Origin: an uncultured Verrucomicrobiae bacterium
GTDB lineage: Bacteria > Verrucomicrobiota > Verrucomicrobiia > Chthoniobacterales > JAFAMB01
DNA: 64,000 nt
Direction of reading: 5' to 3'
NCBI GenBank assembly: GCA_963813025.1
Contig: CAWEXO010000004.1
Span: 32,001 to 96,000, forward strand
Both the position numbers and the translations under genes were made by a program. This document shows, in pieces, positions 6,421-63,840 of the stretch; positions within the stretch are counted from its first letter, which is position 1; each line of letters opens with the position of its first letter. The notes under the pieces were generated by a model. The model was not told where the DNA came from. It ran no database searches and saw only the letters and a list, made by a program, of their open reading frames with translations.

Positions 6421-6667
6421 CCGCGAGAGCTAGAGATCGTCTCAGAATGCCCCACTGTCCTGTGGCGGTAGGGCGAAAATTTATTCGAGCCTTAGCGAGA
6501 ACTTGTTTGAGCCGGACGCTTGGGTGAGCCACCCCTCCAGATGGCTCAAACACAAGTTTTCGCCCTACCGGCGCACGGCCAAAGACGCCTTGGGACATCC
6601 CTCGAACCCTCCCTTCCGAACCATGGCTCGATTGCGCGCTACAGATTGCCCAAGGTCCGATAGACCC
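6421..6667. repeat. Composite REP-doublet/MITE-like repeat (family A), uninterrupted copy
   Basis: CGGTAGGGCGAAAATTTATTCGAGCC (6466) with inverted arm GGCTCAAACACAAGTTTTCGCCCTACCGG (~6543-6571); homologous to the copies at 9824, 12026-15195, 17801, 22216, 22500 and 63560. Confidence 0.9.
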
Positions 6668-6758
6668 GAGAACGCCCGTGACTCCGCATGCTGCCGGTCA
6701 GCCCTGGCGCCGAGGCGGCTTGCAACATGGGAGACTGTATGGGAGGTGCTCTCTTGGA

Positions 6759-7499
6759 ATGATTGAACCGGAGCCGCTGCCAGAGCCAGAGTCGCTGACA
6801 GCGGTCATTCTCGCCGGGGGATACGCTACCCGATTGCGTCCGAAAACCGAAAAAGTCCCGAAAGCTCTCATTGAGGTTGCCGGAAAGCCGTTTCTTGAAC
6901 ATCAGCTTGAGATGCTCCGGCGACAGGGCATCCGGCGCGTTGTCCTCTGTGTCGGTTATCTAGGCGAGATGATTCAGGATAAATATGGTTCAGGAGCCGC
7001 GATCGGGGTGGACCTGCTGTACTCCTATGATGGGGACCAGTTGCTCGGAACTGGCGGAGCGATTAAAAAAGCGATCCCTCTTTTGCCGGAGAGCTTTTTT
7101 GTGCTTTACGGCGACTCTTATCTGCCGATCGATTATCAAGCGGTCGCTAACGCGTTTTACGTTTCGGAAAAGTCCGCTCTCATGACTGTTTTCCAGAACC
7201 GCGACAGCTGGGAAGCAAGTAATGTCTGGTTCGCCGATTCCCGCGTGCGTCTTTACAGCAAGGAACGGCGGATGCCCCAAATGCAATACATCGATTATGG
7301 ATTAAGTGTTTGCCGTCGGGAAATTTTCGAGGACTACCCGTCCTCAAGTGCTTTCGATCTCGCCTCGATCCTGGAGTCACTGTCGGAACAGGGCGAGCTT
7401 GCCGGACATGAAGTTTTTCACCGGTTCTATGAAATCGGCTCTCTCTCTGGATTAGCCGAGCTCGACGAGCTTCTCCGCGATCGCAGGATCTCCACCTGA
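6759..7499 (+). CDS. hddC: Nucleotidyltransferase, heptose-1-phosphate guanylyltransferase-like
   Basis: ILAGGYATRL, PKAL, LGTGGA and YGDSY motifs; start chosen at ATG 6759 after GGAGG. Confidence 0.8.
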   Translation: MIEPEPLPEPESLTAVILAGGYATRLRPKTEKVPKALIEVAGKPFLEHQLEMLRRQGIRRVVLCVGYLGEMIQDKYGSGAAIGVDLLYSYDGDQLLGTGGAIKKAIPLLPESFFVLYGDSYLPIDYQAVANAFYVSEKSALMTVFQNRDSWEASNVWFADSRVRLYSKERRMPQMQYIDYGLSVCRREIFEDYPSSSAFDLASILESLSEQGELAGHEVFHRFYEIGSLSGLAELDELLRDRRIST

Positions 7500-7525
7500 T
7501 CCAACTTTCGGCCGCAAATCCTGAA

Positions 7526-8179
7526 ATGTCCTATTCCGCTCAACATTTGGCCGAGGCCGGCGACATCATCGTCCGGCTCGATCCGGCCACTCTCGAAAAG
7601 ATGGTCGAGCACCTTTTACGGATCCGGGACCAGGGTGGGCGCCTCTTCTTTCTCGGTGTCGGAGGGAGTGCGGCGAATGCATCGCACGCCGTTAATGATT
7701 TCCGCAAGATCGCTGGCTTTGAAGCCTATGCTCCGACTGACAATGTCTCGGAGCTGACCGCGCGGACAAATGACGAAGGATGGCAGTCCGTGTTTGTCGA
7801 ATGGCTCCGAGGCAGTCGCTTAAGAAGAGAAGATGGCCTGTTCGTCTTTTCCGTTGGCGGCGGCAGCCTGGAAAAGAACGTTAGCCCCAATCTGGTCTCC
7901 GCCCTGGAGTTTGCTAAGGAAGTCGGTGCTACCGTTTTCGGCATTGTCGGCCGGGACGGTGGCTACACCGCGAAAGTCGCCGATGTTTGTTGCATTGTTC
8001 CGACGGTGAATCCCCAAAATGTCACGCCTCACGCGGAGGCGTTTCAGGCGGTGATCTGGCATTTGCTGGTCTCTCATCCGAAACTCAAGCTGCAACAAAC
8101 CAAATGGGAAAGGGCGGAAAGCGGAGGGAGCTGTGGGAGCGCGGAAAGCGGCGGGAGCGGCCTCAGCGGAGGGAGGTAG
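7526..8179 (+). CDS. gmhA: SIS-domain phosphoheptose isomerase
   Basis: GVGGSAANASH, TARTND and PHAEAFQ motifs; low-complexity tail derived from a repeat. Confidence 0.85.
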   Translation: MSYSAQHLAEAGDIIVRLDPATLEKMVEHLLRIRDQGGRLFFLGVGGSAANASHAVNDFRKIAGFEAYAPTDNVSELTARTNDEGWQSVFVEWLRGSRLRREDGLFVFSVGGGSLEKNVSPNLVSALEFAKEVGATVFGIVGRDGGYTAKVADVCCIVPTVNPQNVTPHAEAFQAVIWHLLVSHPKLKLQQTKWERAESGGSCGSAESGGSGLSGGR

Positions 8180-8397
8180 CTGGAGAGTGCGCAGCTGATA
8201 GGATGCAGAAAGCAAAGATGCGCGAACCTCCTCAATCACCTGCGAACGAGAGAGATATGATCAGCGAGGCCGCGCCTCAGCATGACGAGATTTACAGGAA
8301 AAAGGCGCGTTGGAGATATGGCCTAACACTTGGTCAGCGGCCCTCGCTGTACAGAGTCCTTGAAAGGCGAAGAATAGAATAAGGGGAAAAGATCCGC

Positions 8398-9003
8398 GTG
8401 AAGAAACGTGATTCATCTACGCCGAACTTCAGTGTCAAGGACTCTAGATCGAGAACTGAGCGGAGAGCGGTTTTCCTGGATCGCGATGGCGTGATCAACC
8501 GACCGATCGTGCGCGAAGGAAAGCCATATCCTCCTACGACGGTGGAGCAGTTTGAGATCTTGCCAGGGGTGCCGGAAGGCTGCCAGAGATTGCACGATGC
8601 AGGCTTTTTGTTGATCGTTGCGACCAACCAGCCGGATGTTGGACGAGGCAACTTGGAGCGTTCAAGGGTGGAGGAGATCCATGCGGCGATGCTCAAGTCG
8701 GTACCGATCGATCAGGTGCTCGTATGCTATCACGCAGGCGAAGCTTTCGGGGAGAGCTGCAATTGTCGCAAACCGAAACCCGGTATGCTCTTGAGCGCGG
8801 CCAAAGCATTTGGGATTGACCTCGCGCAATCTTTCATGATTGGTGATCGATGGCGCGATATGGAGTGCGGACGTCGCGCCGGCTGCCGAACCATTTTCGT
8901 AGACTGGGATTATCGGGAGGTCTGCGCTGAGGAGCCGAATTATCGAGTGTCAAATCTGATGGAAGCGGCAGAGATCGTCGTTTCGAACTCGGCCCAACAG
9001 TGA
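8398..9003 (+). CDS. gmhB: HAD-IIIA heptose-1,7-bisphosphate phosphatase
   Basis: FLDRDGVIN, ATNQ, CNCRKPKPGM and MIGDRWRD motifs. Confidence 0.9.
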   Translation: MKKRDSSTPNFSVKDSRSRTERRAVFLDRDGVINRPIVREGKPYPPTTVEQFEILPGVPEGCQRLHDAGFLLIVATNQPDVGRGNLERSRVEEIHAAMLKSVPIDQVLVCYHAGEAFGESCNCRKPKPGMLLSAAKAFGIDLAQSFMIGDRWRDMECGRRAGCRTIFVDWDYREVCAEEPNYRVSNLMEAAEIVVSNSAQQ

Positions 9004-9719: not shown

Positions 9720-9823
9720 GCGTTTTCACGTTTCCGGTTTCGCGTTTGTGACGGGAGAAGGGTTTTCCTGTGATTAATCTACGAGGAGCTGAACAGTTTG
9801 ATTTGAAGATTCACTGGCAGAGT

Positions 9824-9955
9824 GGGCGTGTCGGACATTGGAAATCTGTAGTACGCCATCAAGCGATTGATCGCGCGAGAGTTAGAGACCGTCTCAGAAC
9901 GCCGCTCTGCCCTACCGGCGCAGGACCAAGGACGCGTTGGGACCTCCCTCTAACG
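9824..9955. repeat. Internally deleted family A repeat
   Basis: GGGCGTGTCGGACATTGGAAATCTG...GTTAGAGACCGTCTCAGAA...CCCTACCGGCGCA; matches the reverse complement of ~15100-15195. Confidence 0.75.
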
Positions 9956-9988
9956 TGTCAAGCGTTGCAAGACATTTTCCAGGAAATC

Positions 9989-11590: not shown

Positions 11591-12143
11591 GGCTCATTTC
11601 GGGTCAAAGTAGCCCTTAATCTTGTTGTTACCGCCGGCTTTGGTCGAGAAGATTATCAGCGCTGCCAGTGCTAGTGCCAGTGTGAGTTGAAGACTCTTTG
11701 CGTCCGGTTTCGCGTTTGTGCGGGAGAAGGGTGGCGGACTAGGTCGCGTGTCTTAGCGATTTCTTTGCGCACAGAGGTAACGGAGCACACAGAGGGCGCC
11801 TTAGCCGTTGATCGGGCTTTGATGCCACTCGTAAGCTGCGCTTTCGCCAAAATAAGAAGATAAGAGAGGCGTTAGAGGAGCGCCGCGAATTCTGGCGAAC
11901 CGCTCGTCCTTCGCTAAAGCTTTCGAATCGGTGAAAATCTGTGTTAATCGGTAGTTCACCTTTCTGGTTCGCGTTGTGCGGGTAGGACAAGCTTCCAGGT
12001 TGTCAGGTTTCAGGACCGGCAGGATGGATCTGCCAGACTTTTGAGTTATCTGTGGCCCACGCGCTGGAGCTATGGTTCGGAAGGGAGGTTAGAGACTTGT
12101 CCCAACACGTCTTTGATTCTGTGCCGGTAGATACGGTCTTGGA

Positions 12144-12149
12144 TGTCAA
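12144..12149 (-). promoter_or_regulatory. -35 box (TTGACA) of the IS110 circle-junction promoter; partner -10 TACCTT at 13443-13448
   Basis: Joining the ends gives TTGACA-TCCAAGACCGTATCTTG-TACCTT, a 17-bp spacer. Confidence 0.8.
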
Positions 12150-13156
12150 GGGCATTGCTTTAAGGAATGGCGGGCCAGATTAGGGTTGTAGGGTTGTTGG
12201 TGAGAGAGAACACCGAAGGCGATGTGCAGGAGTTTTCGCATGACGGCACCGCGGATAGCCAGGGAGTGGAGCTTGCGTGACTCGAGACCTGCGGCCCATT
12301 GCTGGATGGGTTTACACCAGCGGCGAGCAACGGCGGCCGGCAAATAGAGTGCTTTGCGCAGGAAAGGGTTGCCGATTTTGCACAGGGTGGTTTTGCCGTA
12401 GAGCGAGACACCGGAACGGAATTCAGAAGGAGTCAGCCCAGCATAGGCCGCCAACTGCCGAGCCGATTGGAACTCTTTACCGGCCAGCTCGGCCAGCAGC
12501 TTGGCGGCCGTGAGCTGGGCAATGCCGGGAATAGAGCACAGCAGTTGGCTTTGGCGGCTTAAAGCCTGATCAGCCGCGACTAAGCCGAAGATGGCCGACT
12601 CCAGCTGAGCGATTTCTTTCTTGAGCTGGGCGAGTCGTTGGCCACGCTGTTGGCTGACAAGCTCGGGCAGCGCAATTGGGTAAGGGTCTTTTTTCACCCG
12701 GTTCTGTTCCCGGATGAGCTCGCCAACCCGGCTTTCGCGCTCCCGCACCAGCAGTTTGAATTCTTCCTCAAGGGGGCGCAGCGGCCGAGTGGCCAGTGGT
12801 TTTCGCTCCAGACAAAACTGGGCAATGATGGCCGCATCAACCCGATCATTTTTGGTGCGGCGCAGGACCGAGAAAGCAAAGTATTTGACTTGGGCGGGAT
12901 TGAGCACGCTGACCGCCAAGCCTGCTTGGTGCAGAGCGGCGATCAATCTCTTCCCGTAGACCCCGGTGGCTTCCAGGGCGAAGTGGATCTGGGAGAGCGG
13001 CCAAGAGCGGGCCTGGAGTTGGGCTAAAAATGCTCCAATGCCGGTCGCATCATTGCTGAACTTTCCCCGCCACAGGCGAGTGCCATTCTTGGAGAGCAGG
13101 CAAAAGTCAAAGCTTGCTTTTGCCATATCAATACCCATGCAGTAGCGTTTTTTCAT
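12146..13156 (-). CDS. IS110 family DEDD recombinase (336 aa)
   Basis: GIDMAK (D), LEATG (E), KNDRVDA (D,D) and AGLTPSEFRSG (catalytic Ser); ATG at 13156. Confidence 0.96.
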   Translation of the reverse strand: MKKRYCMGIDMAKASFDFCLLSKNGTRLWRGKFSNDATGIGAFLAQLQARSWPLSQIHFALEATGVYGKRLIAALHQAGLAVSVLNPAQVKYFAFSVLRRTKNDRVDAAIIAQFCLERKPLATRPLRPLEEEFKLLVRERESRVGELIREQNRVKKDPYPIALPELVSQQRGQRLAQLKKEIAQLESAIFGLVAADQALSRQSQLLCSIPGIAQLTAAKLLAELAGKEFQSARQLAAYAGLTPSEFRSGVSLYGKTTLCKIGNPFLRKALYLPAAVARRWCKPIQQWAAGLESRKLHSLAIRGAVMRKLLHIAFGVLSHQQPYNPNLARHSLKQCP

Positions 13157-13214
13157 CAGACAGGAATTCGCGTTGAATTGGTTCTTTGTTTGATGAAGCG
13201 CTTGGGCGCGCGCC

Positions 13215-13436
13215 TGCTGACAGAGCCTTGTGAACACGGCTTATGTTCCAACCCTGTTTGGAACGGCCTAAGATACGGTACGGTCTTATGCAGGTGCGGC
13301 ACGAGGAAGGGTGGACTAATCTACCGGACAGGTTCTACCGACCTTTGGGCGAGGCAGTTTCCCACCCTCCTCGGCCAAGTTCTTCACCTCCAGAGTTCCG
13401 CCCTTGCGGGCGGCTTTAAAAGGGAAAAAAATTTGG
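13215..13436 (-). ncRNA. IS110 bridge RNA (boundaries approximate)
   Basis: 5' hairpin at 13398-13413. Target loop has CCTCGCCCA (13354-13346) and CCGGTAG (13327-13321). Donor loop has ACCGTATCTT (13279-13270) and ACAAG (13231-13227). Each guide pair is separated by a small hairpin. Confidence 0.85.
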
Positions 13437-13490
13437 TGGGGCAAGGTACAAGGGCGAAAACTTGTTTGAGCCGTCTGGAGCGGGTGGCTC

Positions 13491-15034
13491 GGTAGTGTCC
13501 GCTTTTTTGTGTGCGGGTCGATTGGTGCTTTGCTGTTTAACTCCGGGCAAGTTGTTCTGAGGACGTCAGCTCGAGCCGGCGAGACCGCCCTCCAGGCGGT
13601 CGGTCCAGCGCCGGGCGAGCAGTGAGCAACACGCCTTGGTGTTGTTCAAGTCCTCGGCAACAACTTGCCACTTTTCTCTTTTCTTTCTCCATCACAGGCC
13701 GGCTTCCGTTGCCAGAAAGCGCTCGCCAAATTGGATGGCAAACTGGGTGGCCGCCAATTTCCAGGTGATCGGCGGATTTTTCCATTTTTTAGTGATGTTG
13801 CGTAGGGCGAAATAAATCAACTTAGTGGCAGCTTCATCATTGGGAAAATGACCTCTGGTTTTGAGCACCTTGCGCAATTGCATGTGCAAACTTTCGAATC
13901 GCGTTGGTCGTGTAAATGATCCGGCGAATTTCCGTTGGATAAGCAAAAAAGGAACGACTTGGTCCCATACTCTTCGCCAGCCCTGGACCACAGCTGGTAG
14001 TTTTTTACCCAACTCGCTTGCGCAAATTCCTCCAACCGTTTGGCGGCTAGCTCCGCCGTCTCGGCGTTGTAAATCGCTTCAGTTCCCGAGCCACGGGCTG
14101 ATGCTGTTTCCAGTTGCAGAAGGATAGTGAGTTGCGAATCAGATGCACAATACAGGTCTGGATTTGGGTCTCGGAAAAACCGCGGTAATGGCTTCCGGAA
14201 AACCTTTAAGCCCATCGATGACCGCGACCAAAATATCCTCCACCCCGCGATGTTGAAGTTCGTTCATGACCGCTAGCCAGAACTTGGCTCCCTCGGTTTG
14301 CTGGATCCACAGACCCAGCACCTCTTTGGTCCCGTCCCGCTGGATACCCAAGGCGAGGTAAACCGCTTTGTTTTTCACCGTTCCTTCGTCGCGGATTTTG
14401 ACCCTAAAGCGTCAAAGAAGATCACCGGATACATCGTCTCCAGGGGCCGGTTCTGCCACTCCAGCACATCCTCCAGGACCGAATCAGTTACCGTGCTGAT
14501 CAGATCGGCCGAGACCTCCACTTTGTATTGCTCTTCCAGAAGCGCCTTGATCTCCCGCACCGTCATACCTTGGGCGTACATCGCGATGATCTTGGAATCG
14601 CAGCCACCAAAGCGCTTCTGCCCTTTGCGGATGAACTGCGGTTCAAACCTCCGAGAGCCGATCCCGCGATACTCAATCTCTAGCTTTCCATCCTCACTGA
14701 GCAGAGTCTTTTTGCTGGTTCCGTTCCGATGGTTTTCCCGCAGCTGGTCGGCTTCCCGCTTGGGGGCTTGGCCCTTCCCATAACCCAGATAATGGGTCAG
14801 TCTCGGCTCCAAGCACCCGTTCGTACAGGCGCTTGGTAAGTTGCTTCCATGATCCCTCCCGGACCGGTCAAATCTTCCGGCCGCTCGTAGCCCTTCATCA
14901 GCTCTTCAATGATCGCCGGATCGATCTCCGGCTTCCTGCTTTGCTTTCCCTGCTCTGCTTGCTCTTTTTTCTTGGTCACTTCCATCTTCTTATCTCAAGT
15001 TGTGTGACCCACACACAAAATTTAAGACACCCTC
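13491..15034 (-). mobile_element. IS256-family element (1544 bp) with imperfect terminal IRs and 8-bp TSD GGTGGCTC
   Basis: Ends GGTAGTGTCCGCTTTTTTGTGTGCGGGTC and GAGGGTGTCTTAAATTTTGTGTGTGGGTC; GGTGGCTC at 13483-13490 and 15035-15042. Confidence 0.9.
13692..14985 (-). pseudogene. IS256 transposase, multiply frameshifted
   Basis: Consecutive ORF fragments carry [47 protein letters not shown] and RGHFPNDEAATKLIY. Confidence 0.9.
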
Positions 15035-15195
15035 GGTGGCTCACCCAGCGTCCGGCTCAAACAAGTTCTCGCTAATGCTCGAATAAATTTTCGCCCTGCC
15101 GGCACAGGGCAGTGCGGCATTCTGAGACGATCTCTAACTTTCACGCGGCCAATCGCTCGATGGCGTACCGCAGATTCCCAAAGTCCGACACGCTC
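15035..15195. repeat. Distal part of the family A repeat split by IS110 and IS256 (other parts at 12026-12128 and 13453-13490)
   Basis: The joined pieces align to the reverse complement of 6421-6667. Confidence 0.88.
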
Positions 15196-17800: not shown

Positions 17801-17925
17801 TGCCCTGCACCGGTAGGGCGAAAATTTATTTGAGTCGGACCCTTGGGTGAGCCACCCGCTCCAGATCGCTCAAACAAGTCCTCGCCTACCGCTCGAATAA
17901 ATTCTCGCCACTACCGGCGCACGGT
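17801..17925. repeat. Family A REP doublet
   Basis: CCGGTAGGGCGAAAATTTATTTGAG...GCTCGAATAAATTCTCGCCACTACCGGCGC. Confidence 0.85.
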
Positions 17926-22008: not shown

Positions 22009-22215
22009 GGAGTTCGCAATCGGGTAAGGGGGGAGAACCAGAGTGGTATCGTCTCCGCGTCCTGTTAGCAAGGCCGATCCGACCAGCTCTGACCGTGCCG
22101 AGTACATCAGGTTCCGCCAAGCAAGTCAATGTCCGCAGAACACGCAGGCGGAGGTTTAGCGAAGGAGCAGCCTTCGGCGAAGACTCGTTCGAGCCGGTCG
22201 ATCGAGTTGCCATAG

Positions 22216-22640
22216 CCAAGACGGCTCAAACAAGTTCTCGCTGACGCTCGAATGAATTTTCGCCCTAACGAAGCAGGCACAAGGCCGTGTTGCGAGACAA
22301 TCTCTAATTTTCGCCGAACCGGCACAGGGCAGATGCTGAAGCAGCGGAAGCTTCCAGTACCTGCGTCCGGAGGAACAATAGGCGAGCCTCGTCGGCGATT
22401 CACCTGCATGGCCTTCCGTACGTTCAAGCCGTTCAGAGTACGGTCGAGGCCGTCCGCACTACGCCATGCGCTCAAGCCGTTCAAAGTACGGACGACGCCG
22501 GGTCTGTCGGACTTTGGTCAATCTGTAGCTCGCGCAATCGAGCTAAGGTTCGAGACATGTCCCAAAGCGTCTTTGGCCCTGCGCCGGTAGGGCGAAAATT
22601 TATTCGAGCCTTAGCGAGAACTTGTTTGAGCCGTCTTCAG
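22216..22640. repeat. Cluster of family A repeat pieces (22216-22330 and 22500-22636)
   Basis: GACGGCTCAAACAAGTTCTCGC...TTTTCGCCCTA, and GGTCTGTCGGACTTTG...CCGGTAGGGCGAAAATTTATTCGAGCC. Confidence 0.8.
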
Positions 22641-28813: not shown

Positions 28814-31800
28814 TCAGAAACTGAAGCTCAAGGTGCCGGTCACGCCATTGGAATAAAAATGGTCGCGCCCGAGTTGGCCCTGGTAGCCAATGTAGGTCGA
28901 AATCCTCTGCGTCCACTGCACCCCAACGCCGCTGTTGAGAATCGCGCTATCATGCCCTACGCGCGGGCCAAAGAGGGTTGTGGTTGCTCCACCAAAGTTC
29001 GGCGCCGTAACCGTGATCGGCAGCGCGGTATACTTATACTCGTGTTCCCACGCGGCGCTGATTGTCGGATAGAAGGTAAAATGCCCCAGCTTGACCGTGT
29101 GGGTAAGTTGCAGCCCTAAGTCGCTGCGTAGGGATTCTTCCGAATCTTCGTGAATCTGGAGCGGTATCAGGGAGCCTCGCTCCGTATACCCCCGGATGTT
29201 GACATTGGTGTATTGCACCGAGGCCAGCGGGCCGAAGGTAATAGCCCCCCAATGGAAGTTATATCCGGTGGACGCAAATAAACTGTATTGCTCCCCGTCC
29301 GAAGATCCGCTCGCATCACCCAGAATCGCCTGTCTGCGCGTGTCGTAGGAGTTATAGCCCCCAGTCGCCCCGAACCCGAAATAGAAATTTCGGTCAAAAT
29401 AGATTCCATACAAGCCGCCAAAGCCGCTGTCGACATCGGCGTGCCCGGTTGGATTCAGGTGGGTCCAAGTATGCGCATAGCCGCCTACCACCCCAAGAGC
29501 GAAATGCTCGGTGATTCGGTAGTCGAGTCCGACGGTCACGCTGCCCGTGGTAAAATTATAGCCGCGGGCAAAAACCGCTGCGTCGTCCTCGACCGTAGCG
29601 AAGGTTCCACCGCCGTTGACCCAGACACCCCAGCGATTCTCCGGGGTTGGCTGCAGTATAGGTTGGACCGCTTCTTTTCCCCCCTTGCCTTCGCTGATCA
29701 CATTCTTCCCGCTGGGCGCGATCGGAGCCTGATTGTAAGTGACGTTTGAGGTGAATCCAGTAGCACCCTGCTGGATCGCGGCGAAGCGATCGAACAGATT
29801 AAACCTCTGCACGTTCGCCCCTGTAAAACTGATCTCGTAGAGAGAAGTTAATTGCGTCACGGTCGGATCGAGGATCGCAATCAGCCCGGAAAATGGTTTT
29901 TCCGGATCAATGGGCGGAAGAGGCTCAGGAGTTATGATATCGATCGGTGGTTTCGGAGGTGGAGTCGGGCTTGGCTGCGGAGTTGGGCTCGGCTGTGGAG
30001 TCGGGCTCGGCTGTGGAGTCGGGCTCGGCTGTGGAGTCGGGCTCGGACTGGGCTGGACGGTCGGTCCGACGTAAGCCAGAACCACGGCGTTCGGCGCATA
30101 GATATTCACCCGGGTGAGTTCCGGGTTATTATTAAGCGTATCATTCACCCGGGCGAATGTGCCGCTGCGATCGTTGCGATCACTGTGGATGATCTCGAAG
30201 GCGTTGCCACTGACCGGCCGGAAGCCGCCCAGTGAACCCACATTCAAGTTCCCGTTGACAGCAACGCTGCCGTGCACATTGAGGTGATCGAACTGTTCTC
30301 CGTTGAGCCCGCCGATGAGCAACGAGAGTATTGCATGAGGGCCTTGCGTGTAGTTGCCCCCGATGTTGACGGCGAGCGGAATGCCGGTCTCAAGGCTGGT
30401 GGTACGAAGGACGGCGCTGTTGTTGAGAAAGACATTGCTTGTTCCAAACGCGAACGAGGTCTGGTCCGACTCAGCCGATTCGGAACCGCTGCCCGGCGGC
30501 ACATTTGTTCCGGCGATAAAGGTCCCTTCGTTGATAAAGGTACTGCCGCTGTAACTATTATGCGCCAGGACAGTGAGCGCGCCGGCCCCGAGTTTGGTGA
30601 CGTTCCCGGTTCCGCTGATATTGCCGGCAAAAGTGCCGTCATTCGCCTGATTAAAAACCAGCGATGCGTTGTCGATGATGTTACCCCGAAGGCTGGTAGT
30701 ATTACCGGCAAGGGCCCCTTGCTCGATGAGCGTGCCACCGCTGTAGGTGTTCGCTCCTGACAGATTCAAAACGCCATTGCCGGTTTTTGTGAGCGAACCA
30801 GGGCCGGTAATTGCGCCCATAGCCGTTGAGTCGAACCCGTTCGTATCGATCGTGCCGCCCAGCGGGTTCAGCAGAATCGGGCGATTCGTGGTGATAGAAC
30901 CAAGCGTCTGTAGGGTGCCTCCGTTAAAAGCTAATCGGGCGCCGCTCGCACCCAGGTTCTGATCCGAATCGATGGCAAGGGTTCCGCCGTCGATGTTTGT
31001 CCCCCCACTGTAGGTGTTGTCGCCGGTGAGGGTTGTGGTGCCGGAACCGACTTGAGTCAGGCTGCCGGCGCCCGAGATTACTCCGGGCAGGGTAATTTCG
31101 TTGCTGCGGTCGACCACTAGGGCTGTGTTGTCTATGACATTGCCGACAATGCCGCCGGTCGTGCCGCCGTTGCCCAACCGGAGTATGCCGGCCGAGATGG
31201 TTGTGTTACCGGTATAGGTATTATCGCCCGTGAGAGTCGTCGTTCCGGGACCGACTTGAGCCAGGGTGCCGGTGCCCGAGATTACTCCGGCCAGGGTGAC
31301 CGCGTCGCTGCGATTGACCACTAAGGCGGCATCATCGGTAATGTCCCCGACAATGCTGCCGGTGGTGCCCCCATTTCCCAACTGGAGCGTACCATGCGAG
31401 ATGGTTGTGCCACCGGTGTAGGTGTTATCGGCAGTAAAGATTGTGGTGCCGGACCCAATCTGAGTTACGGCGCCATTACCTGAAATCACGCCGGGGAAGA
31501 TCACCTCATCGCTGCGATCAAAACTCAAGGTCCCATCGTCGGTGACGTTGCCGACAATGCTGCCGGTCGTGCCGCCGGCGCCCAATTGAAGCGTGCCGGC
31601 CGAGATGGTTGTGCCACCACTGTAGGTGTTGGCATTAGTAAAGATTGTGGTGCCAGTCCCAGTCTGGGTTACCGCCCCAGTACCTGAAATCACGCCTGGG
31701 AAGGTCACCAGATCGCTGTGGTCAAAACTCAAGGTCCCAGTGTCGGTGACATTGCCGACAATGCTGCCGGTCGTCCCCCCATTGCCCAATTGGAGCGTGC

Positions 31801-34762
31801 CGGCTAAGATGGTCGTGCCGCCGGTGTAGGTGTTATTGCCCGTGAGGGTCGTTGTGCCGGTCCCGGCTTGAGTCAGGCTGCCGGTGCCCGAGATTACTCC
31901 AGGCAGAGTGACTGCATTGCTGCGATCGACCACTAAGGCGGCGTTATCGGTGACATTGCCGATAATGCTCCCGGAAGTACCGCCGTTGCCTAATTGAAGC
32001 GTGCCGGCCGAGATAGTTGTGCCACCGGCGTAGGTGCTATCGCCGGTGAGGGTTGTCGTGCCGGATCCGATCTGAGCCAGGGTGCCGGTGCCCGAGATTA
32101 CTCCGGGCAGGGTGATGGCGTTGTTGCGATCGACCACCAAAGCGGCGTTGTCGATAATGGGACCGACAATGCTGCCGGTCGCGCCGGCGTTGCCCAACTG
32201 AAGCGTGCCGGCCGAGATGGTCGTGCCACCGCCGTAGGTGTTGTCATCTGTCAAAATTGTGGTGCCGGTCCCAGTCTTGGTTGCGGAACCAATCCCTGAA
32301 ATCAAGCCGGGGAACGTCACCACATCGCTGCGATTAAAACTCAGGTTTCCATTGTCAATTACGTTGCCGACAATGCTGCCGGTCGTGCCGCCGGCGCCCA
32401 ATTGAAGCGTGCCGGCCGAGATGGTCGTGCCACCGCCATAGGTGTTGGCGTTAGTAAAGATTGTGGTGCCGGTTCCAGTCTGGGTTACCGCGCCAGTACC
32501 TGAAATCACGCCTGGGAAGGTCACCGAATCGCTGCGATTAAAGCTCAAGTTCTCGTTGTCTATGACATTGCCAACAATGCTGCCGGTTGCGCCCCCGTTG
32601 CCCAATTGCAGCGTGCCGGCCGAGATGGTCGTGCCGCCGGCGTAGGTGTTAGCTCCCGTGAGGACTGTGGTGCCGGTCCCGACTTGGGTGAGGCTGCCGG
32701 TGCCCGAGATTACTCCAGGCAGGGTGACCGCGTTGCTGTGGTTGACCACCAAAGCGGCGTTGTCGGTAATGTTGCCCACAATGCTGCCGGTCGTGCCCCC
32801 GTTGCCCAATTGCAGCGTGCCGGCCGAGATGGTTGTGCTACCGGTGTAGGTGTTATCGCCCGTAAGGGTTGTGATGCCGGTCCCGATTTGAGCCAGGGTG
32901 CCGGTGCCCGAGATTACTCCGGGCAGGGTGATGGCGTTGCTGCGATTGACCACTAAAGCGGCGTTGTCGACAATGTTACTCACAATGCTGCCGGTCGTGC
33001 CCCCGTTGCCCAGCTCAAGCGTGCCGGCCGAGATGGTTGTGCCACCGGTGTAGGTGTTATCGTTAGTAAAGATTGTCGTGCCGGTACCAGCCTGGGTTAC
33101 AGCGCCGGTACCTGAAATCAGGCCGGGGAAGGTCACCGGATTGCTGTGATTAAAACTCAAGGTTCCATTGTCGGTGACATTGCCTACAATGCTGCCGGTC
33201 GTGCCGCCGGCGCCCAACTGAAGCGTGCCAGCCAAGATGGTCGTGCCACCGGCATAGGTGTTGGTCCCGGTAAGCGTAAGAATTCCAGTCCCGGCTTTCG
33301 TCAACCCTCCGGCGCCGCCGATCGCTTGGCTGATCGTAGTTTGAAAGCCGTTTGTGTCGATTGTTCCGCCGCCCGCAAACGAACCGTTCGGGCCGTTGAG
33401 CGTGATGGGACGCGTGCTCGTCAGGTTGAAACTGCTGAGCAACTGTAGCGTCCCGCCATTGAAGGTGAGACCGCCGGCTGCCGCGCCAAGGGCGGTGTTC
33501 GCACTAACCGCGACAGTGCCTTCGTTGAGAAACGTGCCCCCGGAATAGGTGTTCACGCCAGTGAGCGTCAGGGTAGTTCCGAGGCCGTCCTTTATGACAA
33601 GACCTGAACCCGTGATGATACCTGCGTAGGTTCCGTTGTCCGGCGTCTGCGCGAAGAGGACGGTGCCATTGTCAGTGATGGCCGGAGGCAGACTTTGCGC
33701 CCGCGCTTCCAGGATCCCCCCCGAATCGACTAGAAGGCTGCCATTGAAGCTGGTATTGTTTCCGGTCAAAGCCAACGTGCCGGCTTGAACTGTCACGGCC
33801 AGAGGCGAGGTGCTACTGTTCGCACCGATTGAGCCGGTTAGTGTCCATGTCCCGGCACCAGTTTTCGTGAGAGTCGAAAAATTGGTGACATTCCCGGAAA
33901 GCGAGTCAGAAGACCCGCCCACAGCGTTAAGGGTCAGTGTGTTAGTTCCGCCGCCACCGTCAAACGATCCAGTGATCATCGAGTTCGGATCAAGCGTTAC
34001 GTTGTCATCACCTCCTTGAAAATCGAGGTTGCCCTCGACACTGGCACCGGTCTCATTAGTAAAATTGATACCTACGTTCCCAAAGCTGCCGATGGCCTCG
34101 CCGATCAACCCTGGATTCCCCGTTCCACTGGGCGCAAGAATCTCGCCAAAATTGTCCACCACGTTCCGTGGACTGCCTGCGGTTGTGTTAACGTTTTCAA
34201 AGAAAATCGCCGAGCTGGGGCCGCCTTCTATCAGCCCATGATTCGTGATCGTGTTCCCCGCCTCGATCGGGTTTACGGCTTCCGAAGAATGCCCGACTCC
34301 AGATGCGATGACCGATGCGCCCGCTGCGATTTGGAGGGTGTTGCCGGCATTGAATTCGATCGTGTTATCGCCTTTACCATACTGCCCCAAGCCGCCATCT
34401 TGAATGGTGGTCGTGGTTTCGATGATCGAGCCTGCATTGATGTTAATCGTGTTATTGTCGTGAAGAGAAATAGAGTTGTCGTTGGTAACCCTTATGCTGG
34501 CGCCGTTAGAAACGTTCAGCGTGGTGTTGTCGGTTAGTGGCGGGTGCGGGCCGGTGCCGACGCGAGCGGTCTGATTCGTGGTGATGTTAATTTGGCTCGA
34601 CGCTGTTCCGCACGACAGCGCCAGTAGAACCAGCCCGAGCCAAGACGCGCGGTCAAACAAGGTGAGTGCCAGGCGGAGCTTACACGGGCGCTCGTTTAAA
34701 CGCTCGGATTTGACAGCTTTGCCAGGGACGCAATCAATCTCTATAGCAGGGGAATTCGCCAT
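28814..34762 (-). CDS. Type Va autotransporter with PATR repeats, Pro-rich linker and beta-barrel (1982 aa)
   Basis: Signal-like N-terminus, repeated NTYxGGTTIxxGTLQLG, (PSPTPQ)n linker, barrel ending TLSFSF. Confidence 0.93.
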   Translation of the reverse strand: MANSPAIEIDCVPGKAVKSERLNERPCKLRLALTLFDRASWLGLVLLALSCGTASSQINITTNQTARVGTGPHPPLTDNTTLNVSNGASIRVTNDNSISLHDNNTININAGSIIETTTTIQDGGLGQYGKGDNTIEFNAGNTLQIAAGASVIASGVGHSSEAVNPIEAGNTITNHGLIEGGPSSAIFFENVNTTAGSPRNVVDNFGEILAPSGTGNPGLIGEAIGSFGNVGINFTNETGASVEGNLDFQGGDDNVTLDPNSMITGSFDGGGGTNTLTLNAVGGSSDSLSGNVTNFSTLTKTGAGTWTLTGSIGANSSTSPLAVTVQAGTLALTGNNTSFNGSLLVDSGGILEARAQSLPPAITDNGTVLFAQTPDNGTYAGIITGSGLVIKDGLGTTLTLTGVNTYSGGTFLNEGTVAVSANTALGAAAGGLTFNGGTLQLLSSFNLTSTRPITLNGPNGSFAGGGTIDTNGFQTTISQAIGGAGGLTKAGTGILTLTGTNTYAGGTTILAGTLQLGAGGTTGSIVGNVTDNGTLSFNHSNPVTFPGLISGTGAVTQAGTGTTIFTNDNTYTGGTTISAGTLELGNGGTTGSIVSNIVDNAALVVNRSNAITLPGVISGTGTLAQIGTGITTLTGDNTYTGSTTISAGTLQLGNGGTTGSIVGNITDNAALVVNHSNAVTLPGVISGTGSLTQVGTGTTVLTGANTYAGGTTISAGTLQLGNGGATGSIVGNVIDNENLSFNRSDSVTFPGVISGTGAVTQTGTGTTIFTNANTYGGGTTISAGTLQLGAGGTTGSIVGNVIDNGNLSFNRSDVVTFPGLISGIGSATKTGTGTTILTDDNTYGGGTTISAGTLQLGNAGATGSIVGPIIDNAALVVDRNNAITLPGVISGTGTLAQIGSGTTTLTGDSTYAGGTTISAGTLQLGNGGTSGSIIGNVTDNAALVVDRSNAVTLPGVISGTGSLTQAGTGTTTLTGNNTYTGGTTILAGTLQLGNGGTTGSIVGNVTDTGTLSFDHSDLVTFPGVISGTGAVTQTGTGTTIFTNANTYSGGTTISAGTLQLGAGGTTGSIVGNVTDDGTLSFDRSDEVIFPGVISGNGAVTQIGSGTTIFTADNTYTGGTTISHGTLQLGNGGTTGSIVGDITDDAALVVNRSDAVTLAGVISGTGTLAQVGPGTTTLTGDNTYTGNTTISAGILRLGNGGTTGGIVGNVIDNTALVVDRSNEITLPGVISGAGSLTQVGSGTTTLTGDNTYSGGTNIDGGTLAIDSDQNLGASGARLAFNGGTLQTLGSITTNRPILLNPLGGTIDTNGFDSTAMGAITGPGSLTKTGNGVLNLSGANTYSGGTLIEQGALAGNTTSLRGNIIDNASLVFNQANDGTFAGNISGTGNVTKLGAGALTVLAHNSYSGSTFINEGTFIAGTNVPPGSGSESAESDQTSFAFGTSNVFLNNSAVLRTTSLETGIPLAVNIGGNYTQGPHAILSLLIGGLNGEQFDHLNVHGSVAVNGNLNVGSLGGFRPVSGNAFEIIHSDRNDRSGTFARVNDTLNNNPELTRVNIYAPNAVVLAYVGPTVQPSPSPTPQPSPTPQPSPTPQPSPTPQPSPTPPPKPPIDIITPEPLPPIDPEKPFSGLIAILDPTVTQLTSLYEISFTGANVQRFNLFDRFAAIQQGATGFTSNVTYNQAPIAPSGKNVISEGKGGKEAVQPILQPTPENRWGVWVNGGGTFATVEDDAAVFARGYNFTTGSVTVGLDYRITEHFALGVVGGYAHTWTHLNPTGHADVDSGFGGLYGIYFDRNFYFGFGATGGYNSYDTRRQAILGDASGSSDGEQYSLFASTGYNFHWGAITFGPLASVQYTNVNIRGYTERGSLIPLQIHEDSEESLRSDLGLQLTHTVKLGHFTFYPTISAAWEHEYKYTALPITVTAPNFGGATTTLFGPRVGHDSAILNSGVGVQWTQRISTYIGYQGQLGRDHFYSNGVTGTLSFSF
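29955..30060. repeat. 18-bp tandem repeat encoding (PSPTPQ)n
   Basis: GGCTGTGGAGTCGGGCTC, three exact copies plus degenerate ones. Confidence 0.85.
31010..33300. repeat. Eleven 204-bp (68-aa) intragenic repeats
   Basis: Eleven TGSIV-type units; near-identical antisense ORFs offset by 204 and 816 bp. Confidence 0.88.
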
Positions 34763-38084: not shown

Positions 38085-38109
38085 GGATGATTGTAGGGGA
38101 GGCGGGGAG

Positions 38110-38365
38110 AGAAGTTCAAGGAGTTCAAAGGAGTTCAAAGGAGTTCAAGGAGTTCAAGGAGTTCAGGAGTCAGAACTCAGCACTCGGCAATGGCGGTGCG
38201 GCAGAAAGTGTTTCGACGTATCTTGAGTGTTGTCGAGGAGCAGTCGCTGACCGCTAGGAATACTCGAGCCCAGCTCTCCGACGACGTTTTCGAACTCCTG
38301 CAACTCCTTGAACTCCTTGGACTCCTTGGACTCCTGTCTTCCGGACTCCTGCCCTCTTGAACTCA
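38110..38365. repeat. Inverted pair of (GGAGTTCAA)n tandem arrays
   Basis: 38110-38170 forward and 38290-38365 reverse complement. Confidence 0.85.
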
Positions 38366-39444: not shown

Positions 39445-39572
39445 TAAATGCCACAAGTCAAAAAATGCCACAAATGCTATAATAAAGGATTGTTCCTTCG
39501 AACCCGTGGGCCGCAGGAAGCACGACTTAATCATTTGTGGCATTTGTGGCATTTTTTGATTTGTGGCATTTA
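39445..39572. repeat. 128-bp palindromic element (family C)
   Basis: 32-bp IR TAAATGCCACAA(G/A)TCAAAAAATGCCACAAATG with one mismatch; second copy at 54574-54693. Confidence 0.88.
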
Positions 39573-39577
39573 CAACC

Positions 39578-46194: not shown

Positions 46195-46209
46195 CGCACA
46201 GTATGTTCG

Positions 46210-46397
46210 GGGAGTTCCAGGAAGTTCAAGGAAGTTCAAGGAAGTTCAAGGAAGTTCAGGGAAGTTCGAGGAAGGAAAGTTTGTGCGTCTCGGGAATGAC
46301 AAGCCTATCCGAGATCGATCGGCGATGGTGTAAAATTTATCGACTATGAGGTTTCTTGAAGTTCCTCGAACTTCCCTGAACTTCCTTGAACTCCTTC
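46210..46397. repeat. Inverted pair of (GGAAGTTCAA)n tandem arrays
   Basis: 46210-46275 forward and 46355-46397 reverse complement. Confidence 0.85.
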
Positions 46398-54550: not shown

Positions 54551-54716
54551 AGCCTGCATGGCGGGCGGATTTCTAAATGCCACAAATCAACAAATGCCAT
54601 AAATGATGAGGTCGTGCTTCGGGACTGCCCGGAGGTCCGACGGCACAGTCCCTTATTTATGGCATTTGTGGCATTTTTTGATTTGGGCATTTAGAAATCC
54701 GCCCGCAATGCAGGCT
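54551..54716. repeat. Second family C palindromic element with extended IR
   Basis: AGCCTGCATGGCGGGCGGATTTCTAAATGCC...GGCATTTAGAAATCCGCCCGCAATGCAGGCT. Confidence 0.85.
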
Positions 54717-54734
54717 GTCGCTTCGGTTTGCGTG

Positions 54735-55433: not shown

Positions 55434-55435
55434 CT

Positions 55436-56236: not shown

Positions 56237-56574
56237 CGCACTATGGTAGGGTTTGGCTCTTTCGCGATTAGGACAGGACACGGCGCGTGACGAAGCACTG
56301 CTTCCGGGTCCGAGCCATGAAGAATCCGGTCCAGAATTGTCTGGGTCCTGACCTGACGCCACTCGTTCCTTTCCTCCTCTTTGGCCTCCATATGGGAATG
56401 GTTCACTGGAGTTGCCTAAAAAGCGAGTTGAAGCTTGAGAGAAGGAGGCGACCGAGGAACGATGCAAGCGGGCAATCCCGGATTTCGCTAAATTTTTTGC
56501 TAATTGCGAGTATTTTCGAATGAAAGACTGGTGTATCCATCCGGGCGACCCCGGCGTCGTCGGCTAGAACTCTT

Positions 56575-59853: not shown

Positions 59854-59910
59854 GCAATTGCACTGGCACCAACACTGGCACAGGCACAGGCACTGGCACT
59901 AAGCAGACCC

Positions 59911-61137: not shown

Positions 61138-61381
61138 GTGTTAGTGTCAGTGCTAGTGCTCGTGCCAGCGCTGGCGCTTGACTGGCAATTCATCCGGCCG
61201 CTTGCGCCGTAACGCGGTCCAAATCGATGATGCTAATACCGACAATAAATTGCCGGCCTATTCTCCATCATCCCTCGGGACAGCAAGAAATCAGCGCAAC
61301 GTTGGCGAGCTAATGGACGCGTTGATGTATGCTACCTTTGCACTCACTAGCACTAGCACTGACACTAGCACTGCCACGGCC

Positions 61382-61906
61382 CTAAAGTCGTGCGAGCAAA
61401 TCGCGTCGGAAATCCGGCAACCGCCCGAATACTTCGAGCAAATGTTGAGCAGAGCTAGATCGATCTTCCGCTGCGACTCCCAGAATCCGGCAAAGCTCAA
61501 ACTCAAAGAAGGTCAGGCCGCGCAGGTCGAGCGAATGATTCCGGAGATACCGAAAGGAGCGGAGCAAGAGTTCATAAATCTCGGGCACCGGATGCTCGGG
61601 TTCGGTCACTTCTTCGACCAAAGCGGCAAAATAGGATGCAGCTAATGTTTTGACGTATTCGGTCCGGATCTCGTTGAAGGCCTCAAGCAGAGCCGCTTCC
61701 CGCAAAGTGTGCAAATCGGACCGACGCGCCCAAGCGACTGTCAAATCGCAATGAAAGAAAAGATCGAGTTTGCCCGCCAAAGGGCTGGCTGACCGGAGCG
61801 CGCCCTTGGCGATGGTCTTCAGCTTTCCATGTCGATCGCTGAACCAGGTCACGATAAGGCTTGTGTCAGAGAAACGGGTTCGGCGGAGAACGACCGCGCT
61901 GATCAT
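61382..61906 (-). CDS. recO: DNA repair protein RecO
   Basis: AVVLRR, SDTSLIV, GKLKTIAKGA and LDLF motifs. Confidence 0.9.
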   Translation of the reverse strand: MISAVVLRRTRFSDTSLIVTWFSDRHGKLKTIAKGALRSASPLAGKLDLFFHCDLTVAWARRSDLHTLREAALLEAFNEIRTEYVKTLAASYFAALVEEVTEPEHPVPEIYELLLRSFRYLRNHSLDLRGLTFFEFELCRILGVAAEDRSSSAQHLLEVFGRLPDFRRDLLARL

Positions 61907-61934
61907 GTTTCCGTTGCGATCCTCGCGGCCGCGG

Positions 61935-63371
61935 CTACTCGGTGACGCGCGCTTTGCCGGCCTCTTTCGGCGGAATGGAGAACGCCTTATTATCGACCGC
62001 CAAAGCCGCCTCTTTCACCGCCTCGCTCATCGTGGGGTGCGCATGAATCGTCCGACCGATATCTTCGGCGCTTCCGCCGAATTCCATGACCGAGACGATT
62101 TCCGGAATAAGCTCCGAGGCACCTGCGCCAATAATCTGTGCGCCCAGCAGACGGTCGGTGCGCGCGTCGGCGATGATCTTCACAAATCCAGTCGCTAAAT
62201 CGTTGGCGAGGGCGCGGCCATTGGCGACAAACGGGAACTTGCCAATCTTCACTGCTAATCCCGTCTTCTTCGCGTCTATTTCAGTAAGGCCAACGCCGGC
62301 GACCTCCGGATCAGTGTAGATCACGTTGGGGACGATGTCGTAGTTCACGTGACCGGCTTTACCGGCGATGAGTTCGACACAAGCGACGCCGTCCTCCTCG
62401 CCTTTGTGAGCGAGCATGGGACCGTCGATGATATCCCCGATCGCGTAGAGGCCCGGAACACTGGTTCGAAATCGTTCGTCCACCGCGACGCGACCCCGAT
62501 CAGTCAATTTAAGGCCGAGATCCTTGGCCAACGCGCCCTCGAGATAAGGAATTCTCCCGATCGCGACCAGTACCTTATCAGCAGAAAATTGAAGGTTTTC
62601 CTGCCTTTTGTTTCTGGCCTGCACCGTCGCGCGACCATCAGCCACTTTGATCTGGGTTACCTGGTTCTCGACATGAAAAGTCAGTCCTTCGCTCTCCAGA
62701 GATTTCTGCAGCGTTTGCGTCACGTCCGGATCGAAAAAGGCGGCGATTCTGGGGAGGAATTCCAGTACCGTGACCTTTGCTCCCAACCGGTTCCAAACGG
62801 AACCGAGTTCCAGGCCGATGGCACCGGCGCCCACCACGAGAAACTCGGCGGGAACAGTATCAAAGGAGAGCGCTTCGTCGCTGGTGACAACCACTTGCCG
62901 GTCGAGAGCGATGTCCGGGAGACTCGCCGATACGCTGCCAGTCGCGAGAATAATGTGAGGCGCCAGAAGCTCTGCCTGACTGTTATCTGGCTTGGTTACC
63001 ACGACCTTGCCCGGAGAGACGAGCTGGCCTGTCCCCCGTACCCAGGTGATCTGATTCTTCTTCATCAAGAATTCGAGCCCTTGGGTCAGTTGCCGAACCA
63101 CCTTCTCCTTCCGCTTCATCATCTTACCCAAATCAAAGCTTACTCCTTGAAAACTGATCCCATGGTGTTCGGCTTGGTGACGGGCAAACAAGACGTGATC
63201 CGATGACATCAACAAAGCCTTGCTCGGGATACATCCAATGTTGAGACAAGTCCCTCCCAGCGCCTCGCGCTTATCGATAATCGCGGTTTTCAGTTCGAGC
63301 TGAGCGGCGCGCAACGCGGCTGTATATCCGGCCGGTCCTCCGCCCAGAATGATCAGATCAAGAGACTCCAT
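61935..63371 (-). CDS. lpdA: Dihydrolipoyl dehydrogenase
   Basis: GGGPAG, GGTCLNIGCIPSK, GAGAIG and HAHPTMSE motifs. Confidence 0.96.
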   Translation of the reverse strand: MESLDLIILGGGPAGYTAALRAAQLELKTAIIDKREALGGTCLNIGCIPSKALLMSSDHVLFARHQAEHHGISFQGVSFDLGKMMKRKEKVVRQLTQGLEFLMKKNQITWVRGTGQLVSPGKVVVTKPDNSQAELLAPHIILATGSVSASLPDIALDRQVVVTSDEALSFDTVPAEFLVVGAGAIGLELGSVWNRLGAKVTVLEFLPRIAAFFDPDVTQTLQKSLESEGLTFHVENQVTQIKVADGRATVQARNKRQENLQFSADKVLVAIGRIPYLEGALAKDLGLKLTDRGRVAVDERFRTSVPGLYAIGDIIDGPMLAHKGEEDGVACVELIAGKAGHVNYDIVPNVIYTDPEVAGVGLTEIDAKKTGLAVKIGKFPFVANGRALANDLATGFVKIIADARTDRLLGAQIIGAGASELIPEIVSVMEFGGSAEDIGRTIHAHPTMSEAVKEAALAVDNKAFSIPPKEAGKARVTE

Positions 63372-63559
63372 GGCAGCTAGACTCGTCGCGAGCGAAACCG
63401 GCGTCAACGCGGAGCCCGGACAGGGAGGACCTCAGGACCGGGCCCGCGGTTTTTTTTAACCCCGACGAAACCGTCACGCGGCGGGCTGTCCTTCAGCGTG
63501 GGCCTCTAAAAACGCTAGTGGTAATTGGTCGGACGACAATTCTGAAATTGTCTCGCAAC

Positions 63560-63840
63560 GTCCCCCTTTCCACGACCGGTAGGGCGAAAATTTATTTGAG
63601 CCGGACGGAGAGATTGCCACATCCCAAGACGGCTCGAATAAATTCTCGCCCTACCGCGCAGGGCCGAGGCCATGTTGCGAGGCAGCCTCTAAATTCTCGG
63701 GGTACGGGCCCAGGGCCAAAGCTGGGAGACGCTTTTTTCATCCGGGTAGGCGCGTTCAAGACGGCTCCTCCGTCGCTAAAGCTATGGCGGAGACGGCTCA
63801 AACAAGTTTTCGCCCTACCGGCACAGGCTACCGGCACAGG
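63560..63840. repeat. Cluster of family A REP doublets, including an empty IS110 target
   Basis: CCGGTAGGGCGAAAA (63576), TCTCGCCCTACCG (63644), AGACGGCTCAAACAAGTTTTCGCCCTACCGGCACAG (63791-63826). Confidence 0.9.

Follow-up and report, generated by a model that had tools for sequence, protein, structure and literature searches.

An IS110 element interrupts one copy of a repeat in the 64-kb window (the whole 64,000-nt stretch of DNA that was analyzed), and other copies of the repeat lie empty around it, which raises the question of how both came to be there. Our preferred reading, to which we give a probability of roughly 0.88, is that an IS621-type IS110 occupies a single, unvarying CT within the GTAG foot of an intergenic REP, that a predicted bridge RNA matching the foot likely guided it to this site, and that the REP was likely spread by the RAYT genes that it flanks. 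Direct support comes from the shared junctions of 12 copies, the identity and covariation of guides and targets, the anatomy of the REP, and REP-flanked RAYT genes in two genomes.

A sequence-only reading of the window had named seven empty copies of TCGCCCTACCG, at 6466(-), 6560(+), 17811(-), 22585(-), 63577(-), 63646(+), and 63810(+); all were exact, compared with 0.03 expected, and none of 100 shuffles reached seven. The units consist of GTAG followed by GGCGARAAYTYRTTYGAGCC, confirming the proposed GTAG plus imperfect hairpin, and the proposed REPIN-like inverted doublets were present at 6466-6570, 17811-17912, and 63577-63656, with tandem 22-nt second units besides. When 63771-63850 was compared with the rejoined pre-insertion site, the longest identity was, as claimed, 36 bp and spanned 63791-63826. 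Five of the seven empty copies match the full 7-nt right guide described below; 6466 and 63646 do not, because these continue ACCGC, not ACCGG. The REP features of the window are as follows.

6466..6570, unstranded: empty REP cluster with a GTAG unit (6468-6491), a tandem second unit, and an inverted unit; full guide match at 6560, not at 6466
13453..13472, + strand: hairpin half of the REP interrupted by the IS110
15053..15102, - strand: REP pair with a decayed foot (GCAG for GTAG)
17811..17912, unstranded: empty REP cluster; the 17811 site is a full guide match and the right-hand foot is decayed
22177..22270, unstranded: REP cluster with a decayed foot (TTAG)
22585..22633, + strand: empty GTAG unit with a tandem second unit, matching the guide in full
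63577..63656, unstranded: empty inverted doublet; full guide match at the 63577 site, not at 63646
63791..63826, - strand: empty REP sharing 36 identical bp with the pre-insertion site and matching the guide in full

Counted genome-wide, there were 180 empty motifs, so the motif is not rare outside the window. Hairpin units numbered 496 in the genome versus 9 in one shuffled genome; 178 of the 496 were GTAG-footed, and most others were tandem second units. The suggested intergenic location was borne out in a crude ORF set, with 7 of the 178 GTAG-footed units falling in ORFs of at least 250 aa versus 62% of random positions. Among 197 REP clusters, GTAG pointed outward in 110 and inward in 0. 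The hairpin has low stability (-3.3 kcal/mol when folded as DNA, with second-unit variants showing no fold), and the units sit inside longer composite modules of 100-300 bp. Judged by its GTAG feet, intergenic location, and outward orientation, together with the RAYT genes described below, the repeat is a real GTAG REP.

The inserted element has the following parts.

12129..13452, - strand: IS110 element, 1320 bp between two CT cores, with the cores within the coordinates; junctions identical in 12/12 complete copies
12146..13156, - strand: IS110 recombinase, 336 aa, with DEDD residues (D10, E62, D104, D107) and S248
12144..12149, - strand: TTGACA, predicted -35, with TACCTT at 13443-13448 and a 17-bp spacer; a promoter would form at the circle junction

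As had been proposed, the cut lies at the CTAC/GTAG foot, the REP being interrupted at TTTTCGCC-CT-ACCGG. The CT core is present at both ends of the element (AG at 12129-12130 and 13451-13452 on the + strand) and at both junctions of all 12 copies, and the element has no terminal inverted repeats (ends CTTGTACC and CCGTATCT). A profile search found PF01548 and PF02371 in the recombinase, which scored 208.8 bits against NF033542 (cut-off 140) and matched the IS621 structure 8wt6 with an E value of 3e-46. E62, D104, D107, and S248 were invariant across aligned relatives, and D10 aligned with the catalytic Asp of IS621. By these sequence comparisons the element is of the IS621 bridge recombinase type.

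When all copies in the genome were mapped, each of the 12 complete ones lay in the foot of the repeat, at TCGCY-CT-ACCGG, with no unrelated flanks; the left junction of a 13th copy also matched. ACCGG was present at 12/12 occupied sites versus 100/302 empty sites (Fisher p 3e-6), and versus 85/194 of the empty sites bearing a hairpin (p 8e-5). The predicted 7-nt right guide selects a subset of REPs, about a third of the empty feet. REPs beside RAYT genes were not significantly preferred by the IS (2/12 occupied versus 5/112 guide-perfect sites, p=0.09). A search for joints in DNA run X1 (contigs, 0.41 of words) gave none, and that run was uninformative.

These sites also bear on whether insertion requires, in addition to pairing with the guides, the REP hairpin immediately 5' of the core, as reported for ISPpu10 (preprint 10.64898/2026.03.19.712850 describes that precedent). 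A recognizable hairpin unit overlapped the left target at 11/12 occupied sites, but it did so at 85/100 empty guide-perfect sites too, so that there was no enrichment among occupied sites (p=1, no power). Moreover, three occupied sites (C13:237817, C11:733729, and C12:154615) lacked any fold in the DNA model, and several copies in the related genome G015 lie in TTTCGCC-CT-ACCT without the REP hairpin. We consider a combined sequence and structure requirement doubtful.

Placement by guide matching, as preferred here, calls for a bridge RNA whose loops fit target and donor. The following elements were predicted.

13205..13388, - strand: predicted bridge RNA, target-binding then donor-binding loop; approximate ends
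13347..13354, - strand: left target guide CCTCGCCC, which fits the left target plus core C and, in relatives, changes together with the left flank
13321..13327, - strand: right target guide CCGGTAG, complementary to CT-ACCGG; the adjacent AT is the predicted handshake guide
13271..13279, - strand: left donor guide ACCGTATCT, same sequence as the IS right end (12129-12137)
13227..13231, - strand: right donor guide ACAAG, complementary to CTTGT at the left end

The region of the predicted bridge RNA (13215-13452) gave a fold z of -1.98. In a consensus fold of 18 relatives the target loop folded as expected, with 0/45 compensatory pairs, the sequences being too alike. There is no pairing between the left guide and core T; in older IS copies this guide reads TTCGCCC. 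Handshake covariation was not seen in the donor loop, where the base stays G with target position 7 as C (23) or G (9).

By analogy with IS621 (PMC11208158 describes the promoter), the IS110 would excise as a circle whose junction creates the promoter TTGACA-17-TACCTT, from which the bridge RNA may be expressed, and the donor CCGTAT-CT-TGTAC would then recombine with the target TTTCGCC-CT-ACCGG.

We compared guides and targets at 46 related loci with at least 68% identity. Right flanks started with AC in 33 of 36 and right guides ended in GTAG in 34 of 39. At the outer three guide bases, 30/39 positions matched the flank over 13 distinct guide-target pairs (permutation 17.8, 0/20000), counts that are not independent because the elements are related; 5 of the 13 pairs carried 1-3 mismatches, such as TAGCTAG versus CTACCTG. 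The left guide also varied with the left flank (TCGCCG, CGCGCC, TCGCCC). Overall, the target guides covaried with their targets, and the donor guides matched and barely varied. Elements at 48-54% identity had other guides matching other targets (CACAAAG/CT-TTGTG, CCCGGAG/CT-CCGGG), and close relatives kept the GTAG guide in nearly all cases while switching REP family. REP feet may serve as stable, harmless landing sites, because this IS group retains a CT core and RAYTs depend on GTAG (CTAC on the other strand) for their activity.

A second IS110, ~23% identical to the first, lies in the same REP in 10/10 copies, offset by 3 bp; the two have different cores (CT versus G) and different preferred REP variants.

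The sequence-only reading had also raised rearrangements between REP copies, and we weighed whether the IS or the repeats drive inversions and deletions. Compared with the related genome G001, the window shows synteny changes at the clusters near 17.8 and 22.6 kb as well as beside the IS/REP region, and a test of 683 gene pairs, covering 2.32 of about 4.2 Mb of G001 (55%), found breaks in 11/60 REP-containing intervals versus 43/623 others before gap-length correction. Amplifications of >100 kb marked by ISPpu10 are described in the preprint cited above. However, once breaks were binned by gap length, the excess was 2.4 (p=0.33, low power), and both testable IS copies (C8:82854 and C14:356945) had collinear flanks in G001. 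According to PMC11208158, IS621 did not recombine one target with another, either in vitro or in E. coli. The suggestion was therefore not upheld, and we regard such activity as unlikely.

A RAYT gene flanked by these REPs, which would link the repeat to its spread, was found in three near-identical copies in the genome (G000), with REP on both sides.

C14:454609-455073: RAYT gene flanked by REP
C15:124761-125225: RAYT gene flanked by REP
C11:605018-605458: RAYT gene flanked by REP

Two copies are intact and one is frameshifted. The 154-aa protein has an invariant HUH motif (H67-L-H69) and an invariant Y124, and it scored 68.2 bits (E 7e-19) against NF047646, below the cut-off of 80, which lowers membership in the NF047646 equivalog but not in the wider RAYT group. 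The best-scoring RAYT relative from 40 family genomes, located in G010 (53%), carries the same REP 24-mer on either side, and a GTAGGG-headed sequence stands on both sides at 23/30 loci of the RAYT group. The matching gene was missed by PF01797 and came to light with NF047646 and by scanning the stretches between REP clusters for ORFs; three RAYT-like genes detected by PF01797 in G000 were rejected as partners, none being flanked by this REP, and a PF01797 search of five relatives, in which 30 loci out of 35 matches were inspected, found no RAYT flanked by it. That the repeat is passive or MITE-like and its RAYT neighborhood incidental, as the composite modules, weak hairpin, and sub-cut-off score might suggest, is very improbable given the flanking of all three copies on both sides, the recurrence of the pairing in G010, the GTAGGG-headed flanks, and the different GTAG repeat that flanks the other RAYTs of G000.

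Insertion of IS110 elements into REPs, including two IS110s in one REP, is already published for E. coli and Pseudomonas. Like IS621 of E. coli (PMC11208160, PMC11208158), the present element combines a DEDD plus Ser recombinase, a left-end bridge RNA with four guides (predicted here), and a CT core; it has a near-identical donor (ACAGTAT-CT-TGTAT in the IS621 locus L185 versus CCGTAT-CT-TGTAC here), inserts at CT-AC of a GTAG REP foot, and may use a 7-nt right guide. It differs in protein sequence (~35% identity) and left target (ATCAGGC versus TTTCGCC here), its host is of Verrucomicrobiota type, and it falls in a separate clade in a quick tree of IS621-like elements that has long outgroup branches and omits 15 near-duplicate rows and loci with <250 aligned residues. 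The proposal of parallel use of an unrelated REP stood insofar as the hairpin does not resemble that of the REP into which IS621 is inserted in E. coli (L185); parallel use itself is only plausible, since distant IS621-like elements (Kovacikia and Xanthomonas records) also lie at CT-AC and sister elements use non-GTAG targets, so that convergence and inheritance are inseparable. ISPpu9 and ISPpu10 of Pseudomonas putida (PMC1525189, PMC12288879) likewise have all copies in REPs (7/7 each) and one REP family common to two IS110s, but both cut the same base and are 57.8% similar, whereas the two elements here are ~23% identical, with cores 3 bp apart.

The repeat and its RAYT resemble REPtrons (PMC2817692, PMC8266576, PMC3733652) in having an HUH plus Tyr protein flanked by inverted GTAG-headed imperfect palindromes, genome-wide intergenic doublets, and an irregular stem like that of group 2 REPs; the same sources already describe GTAG repeats from Verrucomicrobia (Opitutus terrae). 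They differ in the short 20-nt hairpin, a proposed tandem G.A mismatch, the tandem 22-nt second units, and the presence of three near-identical RAYT copies within one genome, under the NF047646 cut-off.

The locus leaves the known mechanism unchanged. What it adds is a likely Verrucomicrobiota (likely soil) host for REP-targeting bridge recombinases, with the REP, its matching RAYT, and two IS110 lineages in one genome. The naturally occurring guide variants of the clade, among them 7-nt right guides and tolerated mismatches, can serve studies of bridge RNA retargeting and the mining of genome-editing tools. Literature searches turned up nothing on this IS110 element or clade, nor on IS110 in Chthoniobacterales; the orthologue target motifs in Supplementary Data 2 of PMC11208160 may include such elements.

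A broader and rather improbable scenario is that a Verrucomicrobiota IS110 clade has specialized on RAYT-maintained GTAG feet, its GTAG guide part fixed and its outer bases rewritten to follow an expanded REP family, possibly by recombination of REP DNA into guide-coding DNA (which the relic at C4:5894 of G000 would show), with two unrelated IS110s then partitioning one REP population. In locus L009 a REP foot lies directly against a truncated bridge gene, but out of register, and this joint was read as a plain deletion. At the C4:5894 relic itself, a REP arm is joined in register to the left guide.

The sequence-only reading proposed that the IS110 element of the window cuts at the CTAC/GTAG foot of a GTAG-type REP with many empty landing sites.

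12129-13452, minus strand: IS110 element, 1320 bp between two CT cores
12146-13156, minus strand: IS110 recombinase, 336 aa, PF01548 and PF02371

The recombinase scored above the NF033542 threshold and matched IS621 (8wt6; E 3e-46) with catalytic residues in register, and the element has the sequence features of the IS110 family. The genome holding the window (G000; 4.42 Mb, 80% complete) contained seven full-length copies, 99-100% identical, and, once each, a copy with an internal deletion, an interrupted copy, a copy without its right end and a relic; three older copies also had internal deletions. All 12 copies with both ends lay in the repeat, not in unrelated sequence, and their TCGCY-CT...CT-ACCGG junctions place the cut at the proposed foot; the left junction of a 13th copy agreed. 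Rejoining the flanks gave a pre-insertion site identical to 63791-63826 over exactly 36 bp, as had been claimed. In the relic (G000:C4:5754-5900), a REP arm (..GTCTTCGCCC) is fused in register with the part of the bridge gene that encodes the left guide; deletion at a microhomology of 7-8 bp accounts for this product, which shows that recombination between guide DNA and target DNA is possible. A frameshifted IS256/Mutator-type element (window 13500-15035) adjoins the left end of the IS110 and terminates by a decayed REP pair.

TCGCCCTACCG was present at all seven window positions named (0.03 expected), and far from being rare elsewhere it occurred unoccupied 180 times in G000. A 20-nt unit pattern with at most two mismatches was found 496 times, compared with 9 in one shuffled genome, and these units formed 197 clusters. 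GTAG directly preceded 178 of the 496 units on the 5' side and faced outward at both ends of 110 clusters and inward in none, in agreement with the imperfect hairpins in inverted doublets read earlier (for the terms BIME and REPIN we follow PMC2817692, PMC8266576 and PMC3733652). Intergenic placement also held, since 7/178 GTAG-footed units fell inside ORFs of a crude set (at least 250 aa), versus 62% of random positions. Paired symmetrically, the unit has a stem of three G-C pairs, a tandem G.A mismatch and four upper pairs under a 2-nt loop; the fold computed for the DNA was weak and slightly unlike it. At the pair that closes the loop, 250 units have CG and 208 have TA, perhaps through a single event dividing two subtypes. 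The strict 24-mer was found in 6 of 61 genomes searched, and the 12-nt foot was present at least 40 times in 11 of the 41 family genomes, against 0-7 for controls. The repeat has every feature of a REP that is open to sequence testing. Because the 2.32 Mb examined of the same-genus genome G001 held only 31 hairpin units, 10 feet and no match to the first IS110, with orthologous intervals often lacking the REP, expansion of the REP looks lineage-specific.

A RAYT gene flanked by these REPs was located by the NF047646 profile and a scan between REP clusters; a PF01797 profile search of G000 missed the matching genes.

G000:C14:454609-455073: RAYT gene, 154 aa, REP on both sides
G000:C15:124761-125225: RAYT gene, 154 aa, REP on both sides
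G000:C11:605018-605458: frameshifted RAYT copy, REP on both sides

HUH and Tyr are present, and among the features tested the RAYT falls short only in its curated NF047646 score (68.2 bits; cut-off 80). In 40 family genomes the relative with the highest score, that of G010 (53%), is likewise flanked on both sides by the 24-mer, and by our count GTAGGG-headed sequence lies on both sides in 23 of 30 loci of the RAYT group. The RAYT-REP layout and GTAG dependence are described in PMC2817692 and PMC8266576, and GTAG repeats in Verrucomicrobia in PMC3733652, as far as their available text goes. REPs directly downstream of RAYT genes hold two IS110 copies (G000:C15:124630 and C11:604808; enrichment p=0.09). 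Since other RAYT genes (L002 and L003, at G000:C5:185k and C14:330k; L001; G000:C13:20967-21416) sit with different repeats, there are several REP/RAYT pairs in G000. Those repeats are GTAGCGCCGACGG-type (91 copies) and CCGGCA..TGCCGG-type (50, both strands included), and a GTAGGGAY-type repeat adjoins the RAYT at C13:21k.

Predicted guides lie in the left end of the element: CCTCGCCC equals the left target plus core C, CCGGTAG complements CT-ACCGG, and ACCGTATCT and ACAAG match the element's own ends, a layout shared with IS621 at its E. coli REP (PMC11208160, available part; L185). Because ACCGG follows the core at all 12 occupied sites and a minority of empty ones (100/302 TCGCY-CT-AC sites, p 3e-6; 85/194 hairpin-bearing sites, p 8e-5), the right guide would operate across 7 nt. 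All seven empty landing sites exist, but only five match the full right guide. In a set of 46 loci, the window copy among them, with identities of at least 68%, the outer three guide bases matched the flank at 30/39 positions in 13 distinct pairs (permutation, 17.8), eight perfect and five with 1-3 mismatches; the loci are related and the p-value overstates. The left guide tracked the left flank in relatives, and elements at 48-54% identity with different guides were inserted in correspondingly different sequences. These three tests support the predicted guides. Against them, a consensus fold of the bridge region showed no compensatory pairs, the left guide leaves core T unpaired, and handshake covariation was absent in relatives. 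The element would work like IS621, and excision, a circle promoter and recombination are envisaged by analogy with that element (PMC11208158; PMC13626964; available parts). REP targeting by IS110 is known from IS621 and, in the available text, a 2006 survey (PMC1525189); a literature search on IS110 with REP and bridge RNA, RAYT/GTAG and Chthoniobacterales, supplements excluded, found no mention of the clade. The observation is real and well explained. A 49%-identical relative in G012 (L010, L013, L016, L019, L022, L025) targets a non-GTAG repeat, CTCTGYGC..CT-TTGTGG, and one copy has its left junction repeated in tandem.

A second IS110 (1686 bp) has a 424-aa recombinase that showed 22-24% identity to that of the first in two local alignments.

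G000:C8:159952-161637, and nine more on C1, C4, C5, C11, C13, C14 and C16: second IS110 copies

All 10 full copies lay in the same REP as the first element, at ATTTTC-G-CCCTAC, the single-G core being 3 bp from the CT core of the first, and the left end carries ATTTTCG and TAGGGC. The ATTT variant was favoured (10/10 versus 130/249, p 0.002). Two IS110s sharing one REP have a precedent in ISPpu9 and ISPpu10 (PMC1525189, PMC12288879; available text). Three copies, one partial, follow directly on a short duplication of the bases with which the element starts. A third IS110 (463 aa) had varied insertion sites, only a few within these REPs.

The sequence-only reading suggested parallel use of an unrelated REP. 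In the close clade, AC starts the right flank in 33 of 36 loci and GTAG ends the right guide in 34 of 39; since this right side is largely constant and the left targets differ (TCGCC, TCGCCG, CGCGCC), the clade appears to shift among CTAC-footed targets, likely different REP families. The sister group targets TTGTG, CCGGG and, once, ACGGG (L149). CT-AC in REP-like doublets is also used by IS621 (~35% identity) and by Kovacikia (L186) and Xanthomonas (L187) elements, and not at loci L188 and L190. By sequence comparison the CT-AC habit is recurrent; a quick tree did not separate convergence from inheritance. We infer that a fixed CT core would turn every GTAG REP, on its CTAC strand, into a ready target.

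Rearrangement between copies was not borne out. The REARRANGEMENT comparison covered G000 and 2.32 Mb of G001, with 762 genes as orthologues and a median identity of 87%: synteny breaks affected 11/60 REP-containing intervals and 43/623 others, an excess within gap-length bins of 2.4 (p=0.33, low power). The flanks of the two testable IS copies were collinear in G001, and according to PMC11208158 IS621 does not carry out target-target recombination. The window copy sits at a synteny break beside the IS256-type remnant, a location that is no proof of cause.

Other repeats in the window include 15 PATR repeats with a 204-nt period in an autotransporter (1982 aa; 28814-34762, minus strand). Intergenic repeats at 38101-38336, 46202-46392, 39445-39575 and 54551-54716 comprise 9-10-nt tandem GAGTTCAAG arrays, which are paired in inverted orientation, and inverted repeats of the ATTTGTGGC type.
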